Part shown: in pieces, positions 8,930 through 25,004 of the stretch
Layout: the number at the start of each line of letters is the position of its first letter
How positions within the stretch are numbered: position 1 is the stretch's first letter
From: Eledone cirrhosa
Taxonomy: Eukaryota
NCBI GenBank assembly: GCA_964016885.1
Contig: OZ024743.1
Coordinates: 164,362,001 to 164,426,000, forward strand
DNA: 64,000 bases
Direction: 5' to 3'
Notes under the pieces: model-generated
The model's input: the letters and a program-made list of their open reading frames with translations, nothing else
Databases searched by the model: none
Told to the model about the DNA's origin: nothing
Program-made: the position numbers and the translations under genes

Positions 8930-10911
8930 TTAAGTTTAAGTCTATTGTCCCACCATACCATGAATAGGTTAGCTATGTCGCCTGCAATGCTAACACCAAT
9001 GGCTGCTCTCTCCTCTTGGGCATATGTTTTTCCATTAAATTTGAACACATGTTCCTTAAGGGTTAATTTTATGCTGGCCCCCACCGCATGTGCAATCATT
9101 TTCTTTAGTTCATCGTGGTTTTCAGGGGTCCATATGGCTCTGGTCCACCCGTTCCATCTATCTGTGTGGGTTTTCTTGGCCATTGACGTAATGGTAGGTG
9201 GTCTGCCTCTTGCTGGTCTTGTAGGGCACAGGTTGCGAAGGCCATATGTATCTAGATAATTATTACTATAGGTAAGTTTAAGTAGGAGTCCCAGCTCACT
9301 GGTATCAATCCCACGGAATTCAACATTGCTCTCACTGATCATTTCTACGCATTTCTCCACAGCAAAATCCACGTCAATAGATGGATACAGTGACACAACA
9401 TCCATACTACCTATTATGCAGTTTGCTGGGTCCCTAGATCGGTTACCCTCGCCGATTCTGCTGAGGAGGTCCTCCGTGCTGTCACATATATCTGGGGACA
9501 TTTCAATGATGGGGCGTATGATCAGGGAGAGGAAGTAGGACAGTCTGTAGTTACTAGCAATGTTAGCTCCACAGACTGGCCGTATTGGTGGTCCTGTGAC
9601 AGAGTCACTGCTCGTTTTATGGTCTTTTCAAAGCCCATACAATGCTGGCACGTCATTGTTCCAGGCCTGGAAGTTGTTGGCAGTCCTTTTGTTGGGCTGC
9701 ATTATATTTGTCCACATCATCATATGGGCATTGAGGGCTTTTTCTCTATCCTCATGCTCCTGTGGTGTTACTTCTCTTGTGTTAGTGATGTGGGGTTGCA
9801 TTGCCTGGATGTAGTTTGGCAGACTGTCAAGCGACATTCTGCCAGACTTGTCTGTTGGAAAGCATGCAATCTCTCCATTACGTGAGCACTGCATGAGCTT
9901 ACGCAAGCCATTTGCAGATTTTTCTCCCAGTTGCTGGGCCTCGATTCTATTATGCTTCTTGCTATACTGTTCTATAATATTTCTAAGTTTAGATCTAGCT
10001 ACACTAAATTGTGCTTCTGTTTGTTCATCGACCTGCGATGGCAATTGAATGTGTTTGTTAAAAGCTAAAGTCGTGGCGTGGACTCGTCGCAGGTCGAATG
10101 ACTTATCGGAGGGATTATAAAAAGTAGAGTTCCTGGCTGCTGCTTTGTGTACTAATGCTATTGTTAGATGTGTTGTTTCTATTTCTATTTCCACCAACAG
10201 CCTCATGGTTGTTTCAATGTCTCATTATTACTCGGTAGAGGGTCGGACGCCATGCTTTCCAGCATAGTTACGTCCCTTTACGATCTGAGTTAAAATCCCG
10301 CCGAGTTTGACTTTGCCTTTCATCCTTACAGGGTCGATAAAATAAAGTACCAGTAATGCACTGGTATGCTGGCCTTATGCCTAAAGTAGAAACAATTATT
10401 ACTCCTGTCACTTTCCTCTGGCTCATTGTTATTATCTACTCTATTTTGTGTGTGTGTGTGTTCGTCCTGGTTATTTTTCTCTGTCCATAGTCTCCCTTCT
10501 CCTTTCAATCCTATTACCTTCCCTTATTTCTGTGCTACTGTCATTAGCTGCTTTCTGTGTGTTTGTTAAGATTGTGGTGGTGGTAAGAGGTATTGAATGT
10601 ATGTTGTTGTTGTTGTTGATGTGTGTTGTCTCTGTGTATGTTATTGTTGTGTGTGTTGTTATTGTTGTTTGTGTCTGCGTGTCTGTTGTTGTTTCTGAGT
10701 ATGTTATTATTGTTGATGTGTGTTGTTATCGTTGTTTGTGTCTGTGTGTTGTATATGTGTGTGTGTGTGTGTGTGTGTGCGTGTGCGTGCGTATGTTTTT
10801 GTTTTTGAGGCTCCAATGTAATTTTGTAAATGATTTTTCATTTCTGACAAGCATTTTATCATATTTACCTTATTATATGTGGCATATTTAGGTGGTAGTT
10901 GTAATATTGAT
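8930..10911 (-). pseudogene. Penelope-like element family X, inverted 5' part (N-terminus to RT core)
   Basis: PTDKSGRMS, PALYGL, GSMDVVSLYPSID, AAIGVSIAGDIANLFM; frameshifted. Confidence 0.82.
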
Positions 10912-12940
10912 TGTGTCCCTGTATTCATCTATTGACGAGGATTTTGCTGTGGAGAAATGCGTAGAAATGATCAGTGAGAGCAATGTTGAATTCCGTGGGA
11001 TTGATACCAGTGAGCTGGGACTCCTACTTAAACTTACTTATAGTAATAATTATCTACATACATATGGCCTTAGCAACCTGTGCCCTACAAGACCAGCAAG
11101 AGGCACCTACCATTACCTCAATGGCCAAGAAAACCCACACAGATAGATGGAACGGGTGGACCAGAGTCATACGGACCCCCGAAAACCACGATGAACTACA
11201 GAAAATGATTGCACATGCGGTAGGGGCCAACATAAAATTAACCCTTAAGGAACATATGTTCAAATTTAATGGAAAAACATATGCCCAAGAGAAGGGAGCA
11301 GCCATTGGTGTTAGCATTGCAGGCGACATAGCTAACCTATTCATGGTATGGTGGGACAGTAGACTTAAACTTAAAGAACAATTAGAAGACCCCTTAACCC
11401 TGAAAATGTACTCCCACTACGTTGATGATATAAACATCGTAGTAAAAACAGCCCCACTAGAGAACAGTCAGGAATTAGAGAAAAACACCATGGAAAGCAT
11501 CCAGCAAATAGCTAACTCCATCCAACAGAGAATTAGAGTTTCTATAGACTACCCAAGCAAACACCCCAACCATCGATTACCTGTACTAGACACAGAGTTC
11601 TGGTTAGATACCATTAATAACAAAAAACAAATCCTCCATTCCCATTATGCCAAACCCATGACTTCCAAATATCTGATCCACCGAAACAACTGTTTCGGAT
11701 CACACCAAAATCAACATACTGATTGCGGATTTAGTACGGGTGATGAGAAACGTGTCCCGCATGTGCAACCCCGAAGAATTAGAGAGACACATACAACAAT
11801 TCATCCACCATATGCAGTTATCTGGTTACAATCAGAGAGATAAAATCAGAGTATATAGAGGAGCTAAAACCAAATGGGAAAAAATGGTAAATAATGACAC
11901 AAATGGGACCTGCCCCTTGTATAGGAGCAAATTTTGGAATAGAATAGAAAGAACTAGGAATAAGGTTAATAGAATAAACTCATGGTATGGTAGCAATAAA
12001 TACCAGAGTGTAATGTTCATCAATACAACCCCTAGAGGTGAATTAGCTGACAAATTTAGAAGGGCCCTACATAAAGATAAACTCAATATTAAGATAGTAG
12101 AAAGACCAGGTACCTCCGTAAAAACACTTATTAGCAATACATACCCTTTTCAAAGACCTCCCTGTATAGATAAGAAATGTATAATCTGTAAATTAAGCCC
12201 CCATATTAACTGTAAAACTAGAAATGTAGTATATAGCATAAGATGTACTGAAGGACAATGTAGAGATAAGAATATAGTGTACATAGGTGAGACAGCCCGT
12301 AGTATAGGGGAACGGATAAATGGACACTGGCGAGACCTTCAAGATAGTAAAGAATCATCTGTACTCTACCAACATGCTAAAATAGAACATAAGGGTAAAT
12401 TAGAGAACATAGAAATAAAAATAGAATCTACACACAGAAAAGACGCAATGTTTAGACAAATCAGAGGCAATAAACACAAAAAAAAAAAATAATAATTACA
12501 ACCAAAATTAAATAGAAAATATGAGTGGAACAGCAACATCACAACTTACAATTAAGGACAAAATGAAAACACACACGCACATAGAACAAACAACCAACCA
12601 GTAACATGTAAATAAACAAATAAATAAACAAATATAAACACACACAGACACCCGGATGTAACACATACACAAACTAAGCACACAACACACACAAAAACAA
12701 GATGGTGTAGGACAGAACAAAGGAGAGGCACAAAAACAAAGAAAAGAATCCCCAGTCACTGAACAGGTCACAGAATGTGTGACGAAAGAACATTGACAAT
12801 ATATAAACAAGCATCTGGTTGTGGAACCAACCAACCAAACGGAAATTTATAAATTCCTAAATTTATATTAAATAGAAGTGAAAGCAACTGGTGCGTGTGT
12901 TTCTTATTGGCAACATGACCCTCCCAAAGTATAACAATAT
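10912..12940 (+). pseudogene. Penelope-like element family X, RT + GIY-YIG + pLTR
   Basis: YVDD, LPVLD, Cys linker CxxxxCxxC, NVVYSIRC...YIGETARSIGER GIY-YIG; 3' end matches 24590-24763. Confidence 0.88.
12754..12797 (+). ncRNA. Degenerate hammerhead in family X pLTR
   Basis: Homologous to 24544-24588 but core reads CTGAACA and stem III is damaged. Confidence 0.5.
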
Positions 12941-12960
12941 ATATTTATATATATATATAT

Positions 12961-15900
12961 CATCATCATCACCGTTTTACGTCCGTTCTTCCACGCTAGC
13001 ATGGGTTAGACGGGTTGTCCTGTTGTGGGCAGTGTCTGGTCGGCTGACCATGCCTTGCTCATAAAGGAACTGATGTTCTTAATTTCTACAGCTGGATGCC
13101 CTTCCCAACACCAACCTCATTTACAGTGAGTGCTGGGTGCTTTTTCGTGGCGCATACATGTCCACTTTACAGTGTGGGCTGGGTGCTTATTTGCCGTGGC
13201 ACCTCCACGACCACCTTGCGGTGGGGGGGGGGGCATATTGTCTATATGCTTCAGCTTGTACCCATGGGAGGTCGGGTACTCTGTATTACTGCGTGACGCC
13301 AGAGGTCACGGTCGTGTGTCATCGCCTTTGAGAGGTGTAATTGGGTAAGGTCAACTTTTATCACCTCATCCCAGGTCATCTTGTGTCTCCCCACACCGCG
13401 GTTTCCATCGACTTCTAGTGCTCTGCACCTTTTTATGCAGCTGTTATCCTTCATACGGATCACATGTCCATACCAACACAGCCGCTTCTCCTGCACACAG
13501 CATTTGATTCCTCTTATGCCCAGTCTCTCTCTCAATTCATTTATGCTTTGTCGTTCACGTATATTACTATTACACATCCATCGGAGCATGCAGGCTTCGT
13601 TTCTCTCTAATCTACGTAAGTCTTCCACCTTCAGCGCCCAGGTCTCACTACCATGCAACATCGCTGTTCAGATACACGCATCATACAGTCTGCCTTTCAT
13701 TTTGAGGGAGAAGCCTTTTGCAGCTAGCAGTGGTAGTAGTTCCCTAAACTTCTTCCATCCCGTTCTTACCCTAGTTATTGTACTTTCTGAACACCCATCT
13801 CCGCTGCTAATTCGGTCACCTAAGTAGCAGAAGCTGTCTACTGTTTCTACAGAGCCCTCCCAGAGATTGGTGGTACTTGTTTCCTGTGGCTGTTTGCTGC
13901 TTGCTGTCCCAGCACAGCTGCTGCATGTGAAGCCTACATTCTTAATTAAGCTTCCTGAGATACCGCTACATCTCTTGTGTACCCATTGTTTGCATTTGGG
14001 GCAGAGAATGGAGTTCCTACCTACCCCTTTCCTACATACTGAGCAAGGCCATTTCCCTGAGGGGATCTGGGTTCTGTTTTCTCGTCTACTTACAAGGACC
14101 TTAGTCTTTGTCATGTTGACTTTGAGACCCTTACTCTCTAGTCCCTGCTTCCAAGCTTGGAATTTCTTCTCTAGTTCTACCATAGATTCAGCTATAAGTG
14201 CGAGGTCATCAGCATACAGGAGTTCCCATGGGCATCCGGTCTTGAACTCCTCCGTTATTGCCTGCAGGACTATGATGAACAGGAGGGGGAAAAGAACTGA
14301 GCCCTGGTGGACCCCAACCTGTACGCTAAATTCCTCGCTATACTCATTGCTAATCCTAACTTTGATGACTGCTCCCCTATACATGGCTTGTACAGCTTTC
14401 ACAAGCCATTCATCTATCATCTACATCTACTCCTAGTTTTCTAAGAGCCCACCAGATTACAGCACATGGAACTCTGTCAAAGGCTTTCTCAAGATCGACG
14501 AATGCCAGGTAGAGTGGCTTACTTTTAGCTAGGTATTTTTCCTGTAACTGCCTCACAAGGAAGAGGGCATCAGTGGTGCCATTTCCTGGTACAAACCCAA
14601 ATTGCATCTCATCTATTTTCACCCGGTCCCTAATTAACTCTTTCTGTTACTTTCATGACCTGGTCCATCAGCTTTATTCCTCTATAGTTTCCTCTATCAA
14701 GTGCATCACCTTTGCCTTTGTAGCAGTTGACAATGATGCTACTGCACCAATCTTTTGGTATGACACCTAGTATTACCTGGTTAACAATACATGTGGTTAT
14801 AGTGTGACCTACAGACCAGATGCCTTCAGCATCTCGGCAGCTATACCCGATGGACTGGTTGCCTTCCCCATCTTCATATCTTTGATTGCTTTACTTACTA
14901 CGCTGCTGCTGACTTGTACTGCTGGCCCCTCTATAGGGTCTACTTGGGGTAGGGTCTACTTGGGATAGGGTCTCTTCTTCCCATGCATTCTCCTCATTTA
15001 GTAATCTATCATAATGACTCTTCCATGCATCTTTCTTCTCAGCACTTGTGAGGGCAAGCTCAGCTTTATCATTCCGGATACACTTCTCTCCAATGACATC
15101 ACAATTCTCTCTGACACACTGTCTCGCAATCTTGAACACCTCCTGTTTCTGGTCCTCACATTGCAAAACATGCTTGAATTTTCTATCCTCTGCTTCCCTC
15201 CTAGCTAAGTATACTTGTCGCCTAGCTTCCCTCTTGGTCTCTATTTAATGTACCCTGCTCCCCCCCGTTCTTCCACTCTTTCCATGCCTGTCTCTTGGCC
15301 TTAACTGCCTCATCTACCTTATTGTTCCACCACCAAGTCACTCTCCTCCTGCTTGTGGTCTTACTCCAGCCACAGACCTCATCCGTCGCCTCTAGTAAGT
15401 TAATTTTTAGGAACTCCCAGTGCTCTTCTACATTGAATGTCTGTATCTTTTCTTCTTTACTGTCATAGGCGTTGAGTAAAATATCTTTAAATCTGTTACT
15501 GGTTGAGGGGTCTTTCAGCTTCCAGATCTTTCTTCTCCAGGTTGGCCTCTGTTTCCAGATTCGTCTAGTTCTGACTGTGAGGTCGCTGACAACTAAGCTA
15601 TGTTGGGATGTACATTCCTCACTAGGGAAGGCTTTTGTGTTTACGACCGTCCATCTATCTGACTAGAATGCTCCCCTGATCTATAGGTGATCAGGTGGTT
15701 GTCGGGTTTTTTGAAGTTTGTGTTACATATCGACATGTCATTGGCATCGCAGAATTCTAGAAGTCTGAATCCTTCCTCATTTCTTGTGCCAACACAATGG
15801 CCTCCATGGACTCTATTGAAGCCGTCGCAGTGTTTACCTACGTGTCCGTTAAAATCTCCTGCGATGATTAGGAAGTCATTGTCGTTTGTTAGAGCAGTAG

Positions 15901-16021
15901 TGTGCATTAGGGACTCGTAAAACCTATCCTTAAGTTCGTCTGGCAGGCCCGATTGGGGTGCGTAAGCTGATATTATTGTGGTAATTGTTTTACTCAGGAC
16001 TAGTCCGAGTTTAATGATTCT
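12961..16021 (-). pseudogene. RTE family B, long decayed copy (5'-truncated within the endonuclease)
   Basis: [32 protein letters not shown]-like Cys motif; many indels; (ATC)n tail at 12961. Confidence 0.92.
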
Positions 16022-16052
<31 letters not shown>

Positions 16053-16059
16053 TATAAAT

Positions 16060-16090
<31 letters not shown>

Positions 16091-16133
16091 AAAATAGACA
16101 AAGAAGCCTTCAATACATCAAAAGTCTTTATTA

Positions 16134-16175
16134 GCCTACAAAGTTTCGTCCCATTAATAAGGACTCATCAGGGCA
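16134..16175 (-). ncRNA. Canonical minimal type I hammerhead ribozyme
   Basis: Minus strand GCC-CTGATGA-GTCCT-TATTAAT-GGGAC-GAAAC-TTT-GTA-GGC, followed by AATAAA. Confidence 0.85.
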
Positions 16176-16203
16176 AGTAAACATTAACGTCCAGAACAAG
16201 CCA

Positions 16204-16642
16204 AATACGTGACGTATTCTATTCTATAGCGATTAGGTCTTCAAAATGTTTATTATAAACATACAGCATATTTTCGAATATTCTATGTCTATATTCACAT
16301 ATATATCGCTATTTCAGAGCATTTATTCCAATTTCTAATTTCTGCCGGACCGGCAACCGCTCTTTCAAGCCAGTTCCTGTACACAGCTAAGTATTCTATA
16401 AGTCTCTAGCTGTGTCATTCTCGATAAAAGCACTGGATATGTAATCCTGAAGATTTCTAATAAGAATGAAACGCGTAGGTTACTTCCCTTGCTTTTATCG
16501 AGAATCTAATTGTAATACGTGACGTATTCTATTCTATAGCGATTAGGTCTTCAAAATGTTTATTATAAACATACAGAATATTTTCGAATATTCTATGTCT
16601 ATCTTCACATATATATCGCTATTTCAGAGCATTTAATCCAAT
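16204..16642 (+). mobile_element. Retrozyme-like partial tandem, 310-bp period
   Basis: 129-bp direct repeat at 16204-16332 and 16514-16642 flanking an HHR; multiple internal hairpins. Confidence 0.6.
16441..16483 (+). ncRNA. Type I hammerhead ribozyme
   Basis: GTAATC-CTGAAGA-T-TTCT-AATA-AGAA-T-GAAAC-GC-GTA-GGTTAC; stem I extended by a perfect 16-bp helix 16417-16432/16490-16505. Confidence 0.85.
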
Positions 16643-16825
16643 ATATAAATATATATATATATAAATATATAAATATATTACTAATTCTCACTTATTCCTA
16701 ATTAAACTATTTTTCACTGTGAACAATTTGTCAGCATTTTCTTTTCCGTTTACCAATATATCATAACTTGTGTGTTACACCTCTATTCTTTTAAATATCA
16801 TATCCTCACACGAGATACAGAAAAT

Positions 16826-18122
16826 GCTAACAAAAACGGATACAACTCTTAACACAAATGAAGAGATTCTACAGGAACTCAAGAAAATTAACACCAACCT
16901 ATCTGTGCTGGTCGACAAACTTGACTCCACAAATAAGGAAACCGTCACCGGATACAAACCCTCCGAAATCGGCGATAACCTCCAAAACCTTTGCGATACT
17001 ATCCAAACTATGTTCACTACTACCAACCCAGGAAAAACCAACGAAGAACCATGTGAGATTGATTCATACAAAATGAAAATTCAAACAATTCCAAATGGGA
17101 ACAAATCCCTCAGAGACAGAAAGTTCTCATTCTGGAAGATGATACAAAATCACAACAAAGCGGAGATATATGAAAAATGGCTTAACTCAACCCCTCTAAC
17201 TCTCTCCCGTAAAATACAAATAAAGTCCATTCCAAATGAATCCGAACCTCAAAGACACCTTAGGGAAAGAATGGCATTGGAAAAAATGAAGACAGAAATT
17301 GAACTTCTTAAATTGAGGGCTCAGACAAATGAGGAAAAAAATCAAAACCATCGATGAAGAGATCCTCCTGGAAATCAACAATAAAACTGAAGGCCCCAAG
17401 GTAGAGAAGATCTCCAAATTATGGAAAGGGGACTGCAACAGAGAAGAACTGAAATCCCTTCAACGCTGGGAAAAAAGTGCCGCTTGGTTCCTACACTATG
17501 AATCGACTTTTCAAACGGATTACACCTCCAATAACCCGTTCATAAAAATAGGAAAACCCATAACTGAACTGCACAACAACTTCGCAAACCCCCCAGCCAC
17601 TAACAAACGAAGAAGGAAGCACCACACCGAAGATGAACTTCCCAACCTCGCTACCATAAGAAGGAACAAAAACCCTAGAAATCATCTCCCCCAGAATGAC
17701 ATTTACAACTTTCCTCCTTCAAGGAGATACCATACCAAATCACTCAACTCCTACGCGGATGCCTCATCGTCAAACATAGGGAAAAGATACCACCACCATG
17801 ATAGATGTAACAACTTCCCCGCTTCAAGGGGACAGCAAGGTAATTTCCATTTTCTCAACTCTCACTTCCACAACAAACCCACACCACACGATACAACCAA
17901 CGTAGGCCACCTATAACACCACAATCCAACATGGCACATAGAAACACACACCCATACTCACAGTACAGGAACACCCCATTCAATCTACAACCACTAACCC
18001 GAACCACATTTTACAACAACAAGGAATATAACAAACACAGGAGACCACTTAACATCAGCAGACAACTCCTCTACCCCAACCATTTTTTAGACACAGCACA
18101 CAGATACAGGCAAACAAAATAA
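16826..18122 (+). pseudogene. Upstream ORF (ORF1-like, coiled-coil/basic) of the Penelope-like element, broken into three pieces
   Basis: ORF pieces 16770-17357, 17329-17916 and 17931-18122; first break at an A7 run; no recognisable domain. Confidence 0.6.
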
Positions 18123-20405
18123 CACAAGACAGGGAGGAGAAACCGAGAGTAATAAAAATTATCAATCTAACTAGTGCAGAACCAACACCCAACCTTATCA
18201 ACTTACTCTCCAAAGGTCTTAAATTCACACCGACCCCACTACGTCCTAACTACTATGAAATGAAGGAAGACATCACAGACTTCTGTAGAAAGTTACGACT
18301 CAGTGAAGAACTATTCGACCAGTACAATGAGGATGAATCATTAGCCAGAAATAGAAGCAATTACACCCCATCAAAAGGTAGAAATAAAATCCTGGACGAA
18401 TTCTGTGAACACATCACAAACTTCCCTTACCAACACTTGCACAGACAAAAACACAAGCCAAACCTCAACAAGAAAGAATGGGAAGAATTAAATAGATTAA
18501 AAACCGACAGAACCATTACAATTAAAGAGGCTGATAAAGGGAATACAGTAGTCCTAATGGAGACAGAATTCTATATCAACTTAGCGCTCTCCACTTTGGA
18601 AAACGAAACATACTACGAAAAGGCTGAACACTACAATCAACAGAAAATTATGAGAAACCTAAAAACTCTGATCAACCAATACAAAGAAGGACTCACTAAC
18701 AAGGAATTCAGCTTCATCACAGACTTCACAAGTAAATCCAGCCTTTTCTACGGTATCCCTAAAGTACATAAAAGCGAATTAATAAGTAAGGCATGCAAGG
18801 AAGCCACAGACAGTCATCAATGTCCCCTCACCCAATGATGTCAAATTAAGACCTATAATAGCAGGCCGCGCTTGCGAAACCCACCGCCTTAGCAACTTCA
18901 TTGATACCATTCTCAAGCCTTTTCTCAAACACATCAAAAGCTATATAAGGGACGACCTAGATATGCTCAATCACCTCCCTAATATGCCCCTTTCTGAACA
19001 AACCATACTAGTGACGTTCGATGTAGTTAACCTATACTCCAACATCCCCCACAACCTAGGAATAGAAGCTATCCAATTCTGGCTGGATAATTACCACAAT
19101 GAACTCCCACAACGCATCAAAAAAGAATTTGTGATAGAGGGACTCAAATTTATCTTGGAGAACAATTACTTCGTTTTCAATAACAAACCCTACAGGCAGA
19201 AATCTGGGACCGCTATGGGAACGAAAACAGCCCCCACTTATGCCAACCTAGTCATGGGATACCTGGAAAATCACCCTCTACACTAAAGTCCTAAACAAAT
19301 TTGGAAACACTCTCCACTTACACATAGAAAGGAACTGGAAGCGATATCTAGATGACTGCTTCATCCTTTGGCACGAAAACATCGAGAAACTTAAAGAATT
19401 TCACACCCTTATAAATGGGCTCAACACGAATATTAACTTCACGATGGAATACAGCCATCAACAACTCCCCTTCCTCGACATCCTCATTAAGATCCATAAC
19501 AAAAAAATAGAAACAGACATATACTACAAGCCCACAGACTCCAAGCAATATCTTCCTTTCAACTCTTGCCACCCTAGACACGTTAAAATTAATATTCCCT
19601 ACAACTTAGCCAAGAGAATCTGTACTATAGTCTCCAATAAAAACACCTGCTACTTACGGCTACAAGAACTAAAGGACACACTCATAGGCAGGGACTACCC
19701 TGCATCACTAATTGACAATGGAATCCAACGTGCCCTAAAACTCAGTACCCAGGACCTTAGACACCCTAAAGTAAATCAACCGAAACTAAAAGCTCTTCCA
19801 TACATCTCCACACACAACCCCCTCAACAATGAGGCCTTTGACACCATCCTCCAGAACATCCCTGTGTTGTAAAAGGACCATAGAATGAACCAAATCCTAC
19901 GAACACACGATATCATAAAGAGCAAAAGACAATCTAAGTCAATGAAAAACATCCTAACACATGCCAAAGTACTGCCAACCACAACAACGAAACCCAGAGT
20001 AAAAAAATGCGATAGACCCAACTGTGGCATATGCATCAACCTAATAGAGGGTTCGGAATTCTATTTCAAAGAAGGACAACGTTCTATAGTAAAACACAAT
20101 TTCACATGCGCATCAGAAAATCTAATATATGTATTAACTTGCTCAGGTTGTCGATAACAATACATAGGCCAGACCAAAAACAGCTTCCGCCAACGCATCA
20201 CTGTCCATAGATCCCAAATTAAAATACGGGAATACAGGAGAATACCACTGAGAACACATTGATACCTGTGCCGCCCAAAATCATCCCAACTTCAGAATCT
20301 TTCCCCTCTACAAATTTAAAGATAATGCCACCCACACCCAGCGCATCAGCAAGGAATCTTACTTTATTAACAAATACGGACCCCGTCTAAACACTTCTCC
20401 CTAAG
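18089..20405 (+). pseudogene. Penelope-type reverse transcriptase + GIY-YIG endonuclease, frameshifted
   Basis: ORF pieces starting 18260, 18963, 19444 and 19885 carry consecutive RT and EN motifs. Confidence 0.9.
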
Positions 20406-21852
20406 ACAAACCCACAACATACACACGTCAACATACATACCTACATCAGCATACATCTCTACCCACATATAAACACAATGACATACGTAAACACACATGT
20501 TCTATGGTGCAACATAAATATACACAAGTTTGCATACCTTTTGATGTCTATAGATATAAACGTGCCGACACACACACATACATAAACGCACAACATGCAT
20601 TGCACACTGATGGGTACATACATATTTGTACACAAGTATTTCAATACGGCAAGGCCTAATGGATTCCCCTTGCAGTACGTACAATCTGGACACACTCCAG
20701 ATACATATTTGTACACAGGTATACAATTTCTGGACACACTCCAGATACATGTGTACAATTTGTACACAAGTATACAATTTGTGTACAGGTATACAATTTC
20801 TGGACACACTCCAGATACATATTTGTACACAGGTATTCCAATACGGCAAGGCCTAATGGATTCCCCTTGCAGTACGTACAATCTGGACACACTCACACAC
20901 ACCTTGGTATTATGCCAATACTATATATCATTTCACACCTTATATTATTAAGGTTTTTGATGTTCTATTGAGAGAATCGATTTCACTGAAAATATCGAAT
21001 AATGTACACCATTTTACCAGTATCACAAAAATATTTACTGGTCCACCCACACACACACACGTGTATGTGCACATACGCACATATATACACACACACATAC
21101 ACACGCGTACATTAACATACAAAGAGACATATATACACACACACACACACTTCTCCGTATAAGACAAGAGCTGAAAAATATCTTTTAACATGTTAAAATA
21201 TCCCCCACACATTCCTACTGACCATCCCTCTACCACGAATTACTCTGCTACACACACACACACACACACACACACTTGTCTTAATAGGCATTTGAACTGT
21301 CAACAGGCTGCGGTTCGCACACACATCCCTGCTGACCATTATCACAACAACGAACCTCTTTACTACTACTACTACACACACACACACACACACACACACA
21401 TATTTGTTTTGAAAGACTTATTTTTCAGTGACTTCTCAATCAGCCGACACAAACCTACATTTGGCGCAAAATCAATTTTTAACATTCACATGACCTCTAC
21501 TGACCAATCAAAATTGGTTTGACCACACAAATTTTTGCAACACGGATTGGCGCAAAGCTTATTTTAATACCGCTGGAGCCACTTTTTTAACATAAAAACA
21601 GGTAGAATTTCCAAAACTAATCAGATTAGAGCAAACATCATGGACGCTCTATCTCAAAATTATTTTTGAAAAGCATTAGAAATGCGCAACAGGTAAAACT
21701 TAAAACCAAAACTGAATACTAACCCATACTATTACTAATTCTCACTTATTCCTAATTAAACTATTTTTCCCTGTGAACAATTTGTCAGCATTTTCTTTTC
21801 CGTTTACCAATATATCATAACTTGTGTGTTACACCTCTATTCTTTTAAATAT

Positions 21853-24220: not shown

Positions 24221-24820
24221 ATATTGTTATACTTTGGGAGGGTCATGTTGCCAATAAGAAACACACGCACCAGTTGCTTTCACTTCAATTTATTATATAT
24301 TTATAAATTTATAAATTTACAAATCTACAAACTTATAAATTATAAATTTCTGGTTGGTTGGTTGGTTCCACAACCAGATAGTTGTTTATATATAAATAAA
24401 TAAACAAATAGAAAAATGAACACAAACACACACAGACACCCGGATGTGGCACATGCGCAAACTGAGCACACAACACACACACAGAAACAAAATGGCGTAG
24501 GATAGAAGAAAGAAAAGGCACAGAAACGAAGAAAGGAATCCCCAGTCACTGAAGAGGTCACAGAGTGTGTGACGAAAGGACTATGACTATATATATAAAC
24601 AACTATCTGGTTGTGGAACCAACCAACCAACCAGAAATTTATAATTTATAAGTTTGTAGATTTGTAAATTTATAAATTTATAAATATATAATAAATTGAA
24701 GTGAAAGCAACTGGTGCGTGTGTTTCTTATTGGCAACATGACCCTCCCAAAGTATAACAATATCGGTTTCAACACACGATTTCAGATAAAGAATCTTGCT
24801 AAACAAATTCAGAAACGAAA
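24221..24820 (+). mobile_element. Penelope family X pLTR-only insertion with inverted terminal copy and 3' tail
   Basis: ~174-bp inverted repeat 24221-24394/24590-24763; spacer homologous to 12610-12800; unique 57-bp tail. Confidence 0.85.
24544..24588 (+). ncRNA. Type I hammerhead ribozyme with one extra nucleotide before stem II
   Basis: AGTCA-CTGAAGA-G-GTCACA-GAGTG-TGTGAC-GAAAG-GA-CTA-TGACT. Confidence 0.8.
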
Positions 24821-25004
24821 TATAAATAAATATATATATATAAATAAATATATATATATATATAAATAAATAAATATATATATATAAATAAATATATATA
24901 TATATATAAATAAATATATATATATATAAATAAATATATATATATATTAATATATATGTATATAACTAAATATATATATATATAAATATATATATATAAA
25001 TAAA

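Follow-up and report, generated by a model that had tools for sequence, protein, structure and literature searches.

A hammerhead retrozyme joined 5′-to-5′ to a Penelope-like element end between TA tracts of the Eledone cirrhosa genome

A chimeric insertion between two TA tracts

The window analysed here is a 64-kb stretch of the Eledone cirrhosa genome, to which all coordinates refer unless a locus is named. At its centre of interest lies a chimera flanked by two TA tracts, in which a retrozyme (family A) is joined 5′-to-5′ with the end of a Penelope-like element (PLE; family B). The left (TA)n tract (16022–16090), a target site, is abutted by the 3′ end of the PLE arm. This arm (16091–16205, minus strand) is a 5′-truncated pseudo-LTR (pLTR) end of the short type, with an 11-bp deletion relative to other family B copies, and copies elsewhere terminate in TA at the same site. 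It contains a type I hammerhead motif on the minus strand (16134–16174), for which cleavage is predicted after GUA, at the 16137/16136 step, and AAUAAA follows on that strand. The two arms meet at 16204–16205 with a 2-nt overlap, and the string across this junction occurs once in the genome. The right arm (16204–16642, plus strand) comprises 1.4 retrozyme units of 310 nt and has a long-type end, at unit position 129. Its type I hammerhead (16441–16483), with a palindromic ACGCGU stem III and a predicted cut after 16477, sits at the tip of a long hairpin (16417–16505). Downstream, the arm runs through the short-type end site (16608–16616, unit positions 95–103), at which the other arm ends in ordinary insertions and which is passed over here; the 26 nt that separate the short and long end sites (16617–16642) form the 'tail'. 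The right (TA)n tract (16641–16678) is again the target site. All of the features listed by the first-pass annotation, namely the TA tracts, both hammerheads, the 310-bp partial tandem and the hairpins, are present in the sequence.

The two units of the window arm differ in haplotype (positions 90 and 123, with a private change at 64). Mixed haplotypes within one arm are rare among the arms examined, and this mosaic points to template switching or to a dimer template of mixed composition.

Several other elements surround the chimera. A broken PLE of family N, with RT and GIY-YIG-like reading frames, follows on the plus strand (16676–21852) as a separate neighbouring insertion; its direct terminal repeat measures 123 bp, a CxxC linker precedes the GIY-YIG-like motif, and the strict hammerhead descriptor found no match in it. 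We considered element N as a special partner of the retrozyme and rejected it, as a TA tract intervenes and sequence similarity is lacking. On the other side lies a broken LINE (13250–16020, minus strand) with an APE-type endonuclease, RT and a PHD-like zinc finger, truncated at the TA tract, which we take to be RTE-like. PLE family C is also represented in the window, by a broken long copy and a head-to-head short/long pair with a tail of ∼60 nt (10900–12960, 24225–24825).

The minus-strand hammerhead had been described as canonical. It does have all the core letters when read by eye, but its stem I comprises only 3 contiguous pairs, which is why it escaped the strict descriptor, and taken alone it folds no better than shuffled sequences (z about −1.1). 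Rfam gave no match in the window at gathering score; below threshold, Hammerhead_3 hit the minus motif (E = 0.025) and HH9 the plus motif (E = 0.29). A caveat of the first-pass annotation, that the minus hammerhead may be a separate pLTR fragment, proved well placed, since the motif lies outside the retrozyme unit, in the pLTR end of family B. The left 113 bases of the 552-base query (16091–16642) belong to a family of their own, for which at least 1,091 candidate places were counted and in which direct repeats 4.5–4.6 kb apart enclose broken frames. RT-type motifs can be recognised in these frames by eye; in four pieces searched against Pfam, GIY-YIG was found in one, below the cut-off (E = 0.0015), and RVT_1 in none. 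Judged by these repeats and frames, family B is a PLE of ∼4.5 kb, an ordinary EN+ member, and the window's minus hammerhead is its putative pLTR motif. Like the pLTR hammerheads of PLEs, for which dimeric cleavage is described (PMC4209133), the minus motif is type I with a weak helix III; the window copy departs from them only by its truncation and the deletion noted above.

The 310-nt retrozyme family

The direct repeat of the right arm (16204–16338 and 16514–16648) has a spacing of 310 and an identity of 96%. Its hammerhead comprises a 6-bp stem I, the core CUGAAGA, a 4-bp stem II on a U·U pair, GAAA and the ACGCGU stem III, and is prolonged by a perfect 16-bp extension helix (16417–16432 with 16490–16505). 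The fold of this hairpin has a z score of −6.8, equalled by none of 200 shuffles, and the strict descriptor gave this one match in the 64-kb window and none in 30 shuffles. For the whole unit, including the small hairpins pointed out earlier, z is −4.3. When a two-unit transcript is folded to minimum energy, the ACGCGU hexamers fail to pair, so the case for cleavage as a dimer comes from the literature. No reading frame of 80 codons or more was found within the unit, and no hammerhead core on its minus strand; the window copy has a single hammerhead.

Elsewhere in the genome, family A arrays are pure tandem units, terminated by TA and without LTR/PBS/PPT organisation. Across ∼860 unit pieces, nine of the 12 conserved positions of the catalytic core vary in at most one piece, and the remaining three in six or seven. 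Subfamily changes fall in N7, in loop II and at stem positions where pairing is kept. Of 13 polymorphic unit columns, seven lie in the 45-nt hammerhead, yet they spare the conserved core except for the free N7, and changes in stem I retain pairing. No pair was found changed on both sides, in an alignment of 6 sequences that is too shallow to judge covariation. Family A has the sequence properties of a non-LTR retrozyme and appears to work like one, and it would plausibly give rise to circular RNA. The retrozyme reading of the first-pass annotation is upheld by the dispersed 310-nt arrays and their nearly invariant core, and the genome search for such arrays that it proposed found them on many contigs, with up to 27 units per arm.

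The genome searched comprises 3.0 Gb. The query of all 552 bases has one full-length match; the other 149 matches listed (of 199) start at query position 113 or beyond. A degenerate pattern for the family A core matched 16,874 times (8,539 + 8,335; control, 0), with 310-nt spacing among the matches listed, and the ribozyme-core copies are ∼98% identical. If each core match represents one unit, the family totals ∼5 Mb. On the forward strand alone there are 870 long and 730 short ends; doubling these counts gives roughly 1,500–1,700 insertions, an estimate in which the end patterns miss variants and for which reverse-strand counts were set aside as inflated by overlapping matches. Family A is young, because units deviate from the majority of their own arm by only 0.11% on average. 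In contigs from four sequencing runs, three other organisms carry about one unit, with 5–7 differences; depth is low in two of the three. Among the contig pieces listed, none crosses the B–A junction, a result that carries no weight either way.

Family A resembles the metazoan non-LTR retrozymes (PMC7229834; bioRxiv 10.64898/2026.07.22.740005) in its non-coding tandem unit within the 170–400 nt range, its low GC, its one type I hammerhead per unit and its dispersal as monomers to multimers, and its U·U pair at the base of helix II is shared with HHR_Amex2 of axolotl. For published elements of this kind, cleavage and circles have been demonstrated in coral, mussel and axolotl (PMC7229834), whereas for family A cleavage is predicted and circles are plausible.

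Two-armed insertions and mixed joints

Most family A insertions in (TA)n consist of two arms placed head-to-head. Each arm ends in TA at unit position ∼103 (short) or ∼124–136 (long, ∼129). In an unbiased stretch (C1:1–86.3 Mb), we counted 44 long and 44 short ends, which formed 33 pairs by coordinate, all of them short/long; reading the 22 unpaired ends yielded 10 further short/long pairs. Hence 43 of the 55 insertions there are two-armed, and none is same-type. The full set of 157 fetched loci, partly picked as suspected oddities, contained after checking 102 short/long pairs (100 without two duplicated segments) versus 2 same-type pairs, L259 (short/short) and L258 (long/long); in seven two-armed loci, one arm ends off both sites. 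Before reading, the script had scored 98 pairs as short/long and 4 as short/short, with 2 more truncated by the locus edge and 10 showing an odd end. On checking, the short/short calls at L248 and L281 proved spurious, and L269 proved to be short/long with a deletion. Among arms shorter than 25 nt, three of four obey the rule and L248 breaks it. In all, the two arms of family A take opposite ends ∼98% of the time. Target-site duplications are not readable here, both flanks being TA. At L161 (1384–1670), ∼290 nt of unrelated, GC-richer sequence are captured between two retrozyme arms.

This footprint matches the 'tail' and two RT start sites of PLEs, and the local PLE families follow the same rule, with one-of-each pairs in 8/9 cases for B, 5/5 for C, 3/3 for N and 4/4 for G. 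Family B arms end at 334–342 and 440–442 of the reference, giving a tail of ∼105 nt, and the sole short/short pair of this family is L065:3711–4300. In the insertions at L065 and L084 the flanks are inverted copies of each other (target-DNA fold-back).

EN+ PLEs are described as having an inverted copy, a tail that is often one-ended and a TA preference (PMC8557442, PMC3846280). A purified PLE protein, predicted to be dimeric, cuts and extends both strands in vitro, from a start site that is alike on both strands, and two start sites define the PLE tail (PMC11167929). With these elements family A shares partial tandems, an inverted 5′-truncated copy at the 5′ end, two start sites and a tail at one end that falls within the PLE type (∼30–40 bp); its preference for (TA)n is that of some EN+ PLE clades. 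Unlike them, it is protein-free, and BLAST found no similarity between it and those local PLEs that were compared. The EN+ tail is described as optional in those sources, whereas family A arms are opposite-ended almost without exception, and the start sites of the anole PLE are not homologous to the target (PMC11167929), whereas those of family A resemble TA. Taken as a whole, the footprint indicates that PLE machinery likely moves family A by two-ended priming. Inverted insertions also arise from L1 twin priming, where two priming events are joined mid-way. Two joined priming events likewise underlie the bridged insertions described for synchronous L1 (bioRxiv 10.1101/2024.08.27.596794). In contrast to L1, with its poly(A) tail and variable internal site, both arms of family A start at fixed internal sites that lie close together on a tandem template, and they terminate in TA.

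Two further tandem families show two-armed insertions. A sister family with a 316-nt unit (923 candidate places, e.g. L154:5069–5730, L197–L221) conserves the end-site region and hairpin shape of family A; its hammerhead, read by eye, has U3–A8 instead of C3–G8 and a longer, 4-bp stem III. The 3–8 pair of the hammerhead is known to be compensable (PMC11167929). Its 11 pairs include one true short/short (L209); similar calls at L206 and L212 were spurious and due to internal AT runs. The other family has a 521-nt period (2,406 candidate places, e.g. L082:2640–3540, L222–L241), with ends 118 nt apart, and follows the short/long rule. Compared by eye, it has a tail similar to the one in PLE family B; its CUGAUGA-C-GAAA motif differs from a standard hammerhead. 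The descriptor also matched other hammerhead-like families, with a palindromic CUAG stem III (L090:4934 and 5908, L137:1141).

PLE sequence lies at the retrozyme 5′ junction in 8 of the 157 loci, head-to-head and in the sense orientation in all eight (24 single-arm partners tested). These are the window (B), L078 and L255 (C), L098 (N), L083 (D), L177 (F), where the joint runs across an assembly gap, and L267 and L275 (B-like). In the unbiased stretch, 1 of 55 insertions has such a mixed joint. At a ninth joint, L082, the partner is the 521-nt tandem family, represented by its first 120 nt in antisense. L186 and L192 were dropped from the set, their partners being ambiguous, and L036 and L211 proved false as mixed pairs. 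The short/long rule is kept in the window, L078, L098 and L177, and broken at L255 (long/long), L083 (short/short) and L082 (short/short); for gap-free PLE joints typed at both ends it is kept in three of five, L267 and L275 being outside this count. A cross-family rule, apparent in the first four joints, was therefore abandoned once these three broke it. Given these exceptions, the chimeras are not evidence for a single coordinated complex, and we read the mixed joints as the work of two separate complexes, one arm each, whose cDNAs were then joined. Secondary joining of older insertions is a fair rival at any single locus, the window included. At L049, two PLEs are joined without a retrozyme and the rule is kept.

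How the two arms may arise

The two arms of an insertion are closely related. Their majority haplotypes are identical in 35 of 38 insertions, compared with 8.7% between insertions (16–20% within a subfamily), and a private variant is common to both arms in 7 of 38. Either arm can be the farther-reaching one (52 versus 39 of 91 pairs). In 10 of the 91 pairs neither arm contains the other, which excludes fold-back copying of one cDNA for these insertions and calls for two priming events. Arm–arm junctions overlap by 0–5 nt in 29 of 49 cases. Arm 5′ ends fall at the predicted cleavage site in 7 of 257 cases (9.1 expected); given this absence of enrichment, a linear monomer is not the template.

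Long arms contain blocks of minority variants that recur every 2–10 units, sometimes with several periods per arm, and represent either a young satellite forming or multimeric circle templates. Such blocks indicate that arm length stems partly from DNA-level amplification and not from RT laps. Higher-order periodic blocks were seen in L247, L265/L306, L164, L096, L073 and L091. A minority variant is present in both arms in 7 of 43 insertions, several near the junction (control, 8 of 1,806), so arm-to-arm conversion may contribute to the common haplotype. Of the 24 variants fixed in whole arms, 12 are found at a single locus only. Of 103 variants restricted to a single unit, not one reappears at a matching unit index at a different locus.

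We consider it probable that the window insertion formed when a retrozyme was joined to the last 115 bases of a PLE by way of PLE proteins priming both ends of a cut TA tract. Transcripts of tandem arrays would self-cleave after GUA, probably as dimers via the palindromic stem III, and be ligated into 310-nt circles. A PLE RT/GIY-YIG dimer would then nick both strands of (TA)n, and on the same RNA one end would prime at unit position ∼103, its counterpart at ∼129. Both cDNAs would extend beyond the point of cleavage, and microhomology of 0–5 nt would connect their distal ends; occasionally, as in the window, the cDNA of another element would supply the second end. Long arms would later extend at the DNA level. 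The two-armed pattern explains why the two hammerheads face away from each other. For the general mechanism, we lean, with slightly more confidence than doubt, toward an asymmetric PLE dimer that primes both cut (TA)n ends on one circular ribozyme RNA, with subunits always short versus long, giving giant head-to-head arrays and sometimes a PLE cDNA as second arm; the non-coding tandem families carried by this machinery would number three or more (310, 316 and 521 nt). As to the autonomous partner, the unit lacks BLAST similarity to the seven references compared (B, N, two of C, F, G and E).

The alternatives weighed here concern different steps, and our assessments of them are not meant to add up to one. 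The junction in the window could be secondary: two independent insertions in one TA cluster, with the inner arms removed by a deletion or a later 5′ join, the families and PLE mobility being unchanged. TA tracts in this genome are sinks for many families, three of seven typed retrozyme mixed joints break the short/long rule, the antisense partner at L082 is what a join into an older insertion would leave, and the window arm is a mosaic of two haplotypes. We nevertheless think this unlikely, as antisense arms should then be met at least as often, yet all eight PLE partners are sense, and the window joint, with its short overlap and no intervening TA, resembles ordinary arm–arm joints. About as doubtful is a template consisting of uncleaved linear multimer transcripts, with the hammerhead a minor pLTR heirloom and arrays that grow as satellite DNA. 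The periodic variant blocks fit this idea, as do insertion by the anole PLE in vitro without need of a hammerhead (PMC11167929) and in vitro cleavage of just one of nine Xenopus retrozyme dimers (bioRxiv 10.64898/2026.07.22.740005). The counts of private and recurring variants, however, fit a one-unit template better than copying from a heterogeneous array, and two diverged families retain the core, the sister having a compensated 3–8 pair.

We regard it as improbable that the 310-nt unit is the pLTR of a still unseen autonomous PLE and the arrays its by-products. Xenopus retrozymes are often pLTR-like (bioRxiv 10.64898/2026.07.22.740005), and by eye the family A hammerhead core and stem II share 24–25 of 27 letters with the pLTR of PLE family D/J, the U·U pair included. 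Against this origin, none of 157 loci has an arm continuing co-oriented into a reading frame, long spans between paired ends, fetched in search of an autonomous element, are pure 310-nt arrays, and no similarity beyond the hammerhead was seen (BLAST to the seven references; D/J by eye). Ambisense viroid-like circular RNAs carry hammerheads on both strands, and the first-pass annotation had proposed a possibly ambisense element; the window does have hammerheads of opposite polarity, 270 bp apart. We consider an integrated replicon of this kind, with a ribozyme on each strand, very improbable and, as far as the genome goes, already refuted. In contrast to such RNAs, the two motifs belong to different units linked once in the genome, the minus motif being part of a widespread family with RT/GIY-YIG-type frames, and the minus strand of the unit has no core. 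The co-occurrence of both hammerheads that the annotation had suggested looking for was not borne out either: among 156 other retrozyme loci, 3 have the B hammerhead nearby and none has it at the junction. With the ambisense reading unsupported, the main source of surprise in the annotation is lost.

What is new here is the PLE-type two-armed footprint of a retrozyme, with its near-strict short/long rule, together with the PLE partner arms. PLEs are regarded as strong candidates for the mover of animal retrozymes, on indirect grounds: hammerhead type, co-occurrence and pLTR likeness (PMC7229834; bioRxiv 10.64898/2026.07.22.740005), the last two being added by the latter source, which leaves the mechanism open. 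The evidence for family A is instead an insertion footprint. The word 'inverted' is absent from the main text of PMC7229834, and the available text of bioRxiv 10.64898/2026.07.22.740005 describes no two-armed pattern, tail or PLE joint, all of which are present in family A. Our literature search, with supplements and most subscription journals outside its scope, found no report of two-armed retrozyme insertions or retrozyme–PLE joints. The origin of the inverted copies and one-sided tail of PLEs has been called undefined (PMC8557442, PMC3846280). Family A, young, protein-free and with more than a thousand insertions, displays both features under a near-strict rule, with start sites mapped to within a few bases, and its 310-nt unit could serve as substrate in the PLE assay already established in vitro. 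If the asymmetric dimer is real, the insertions would be a direct footprint of PLEs mobilising animal retrozymes, and would reveal the manner in which they do so. PLE family D/J (L303 reverse ∼1300–1420, L153, L281, L101) is a candidate lead for the autonomous partner or ancestor of family A; it has a microsatellite-rich 3′ UTR of ∼3.3 kb.
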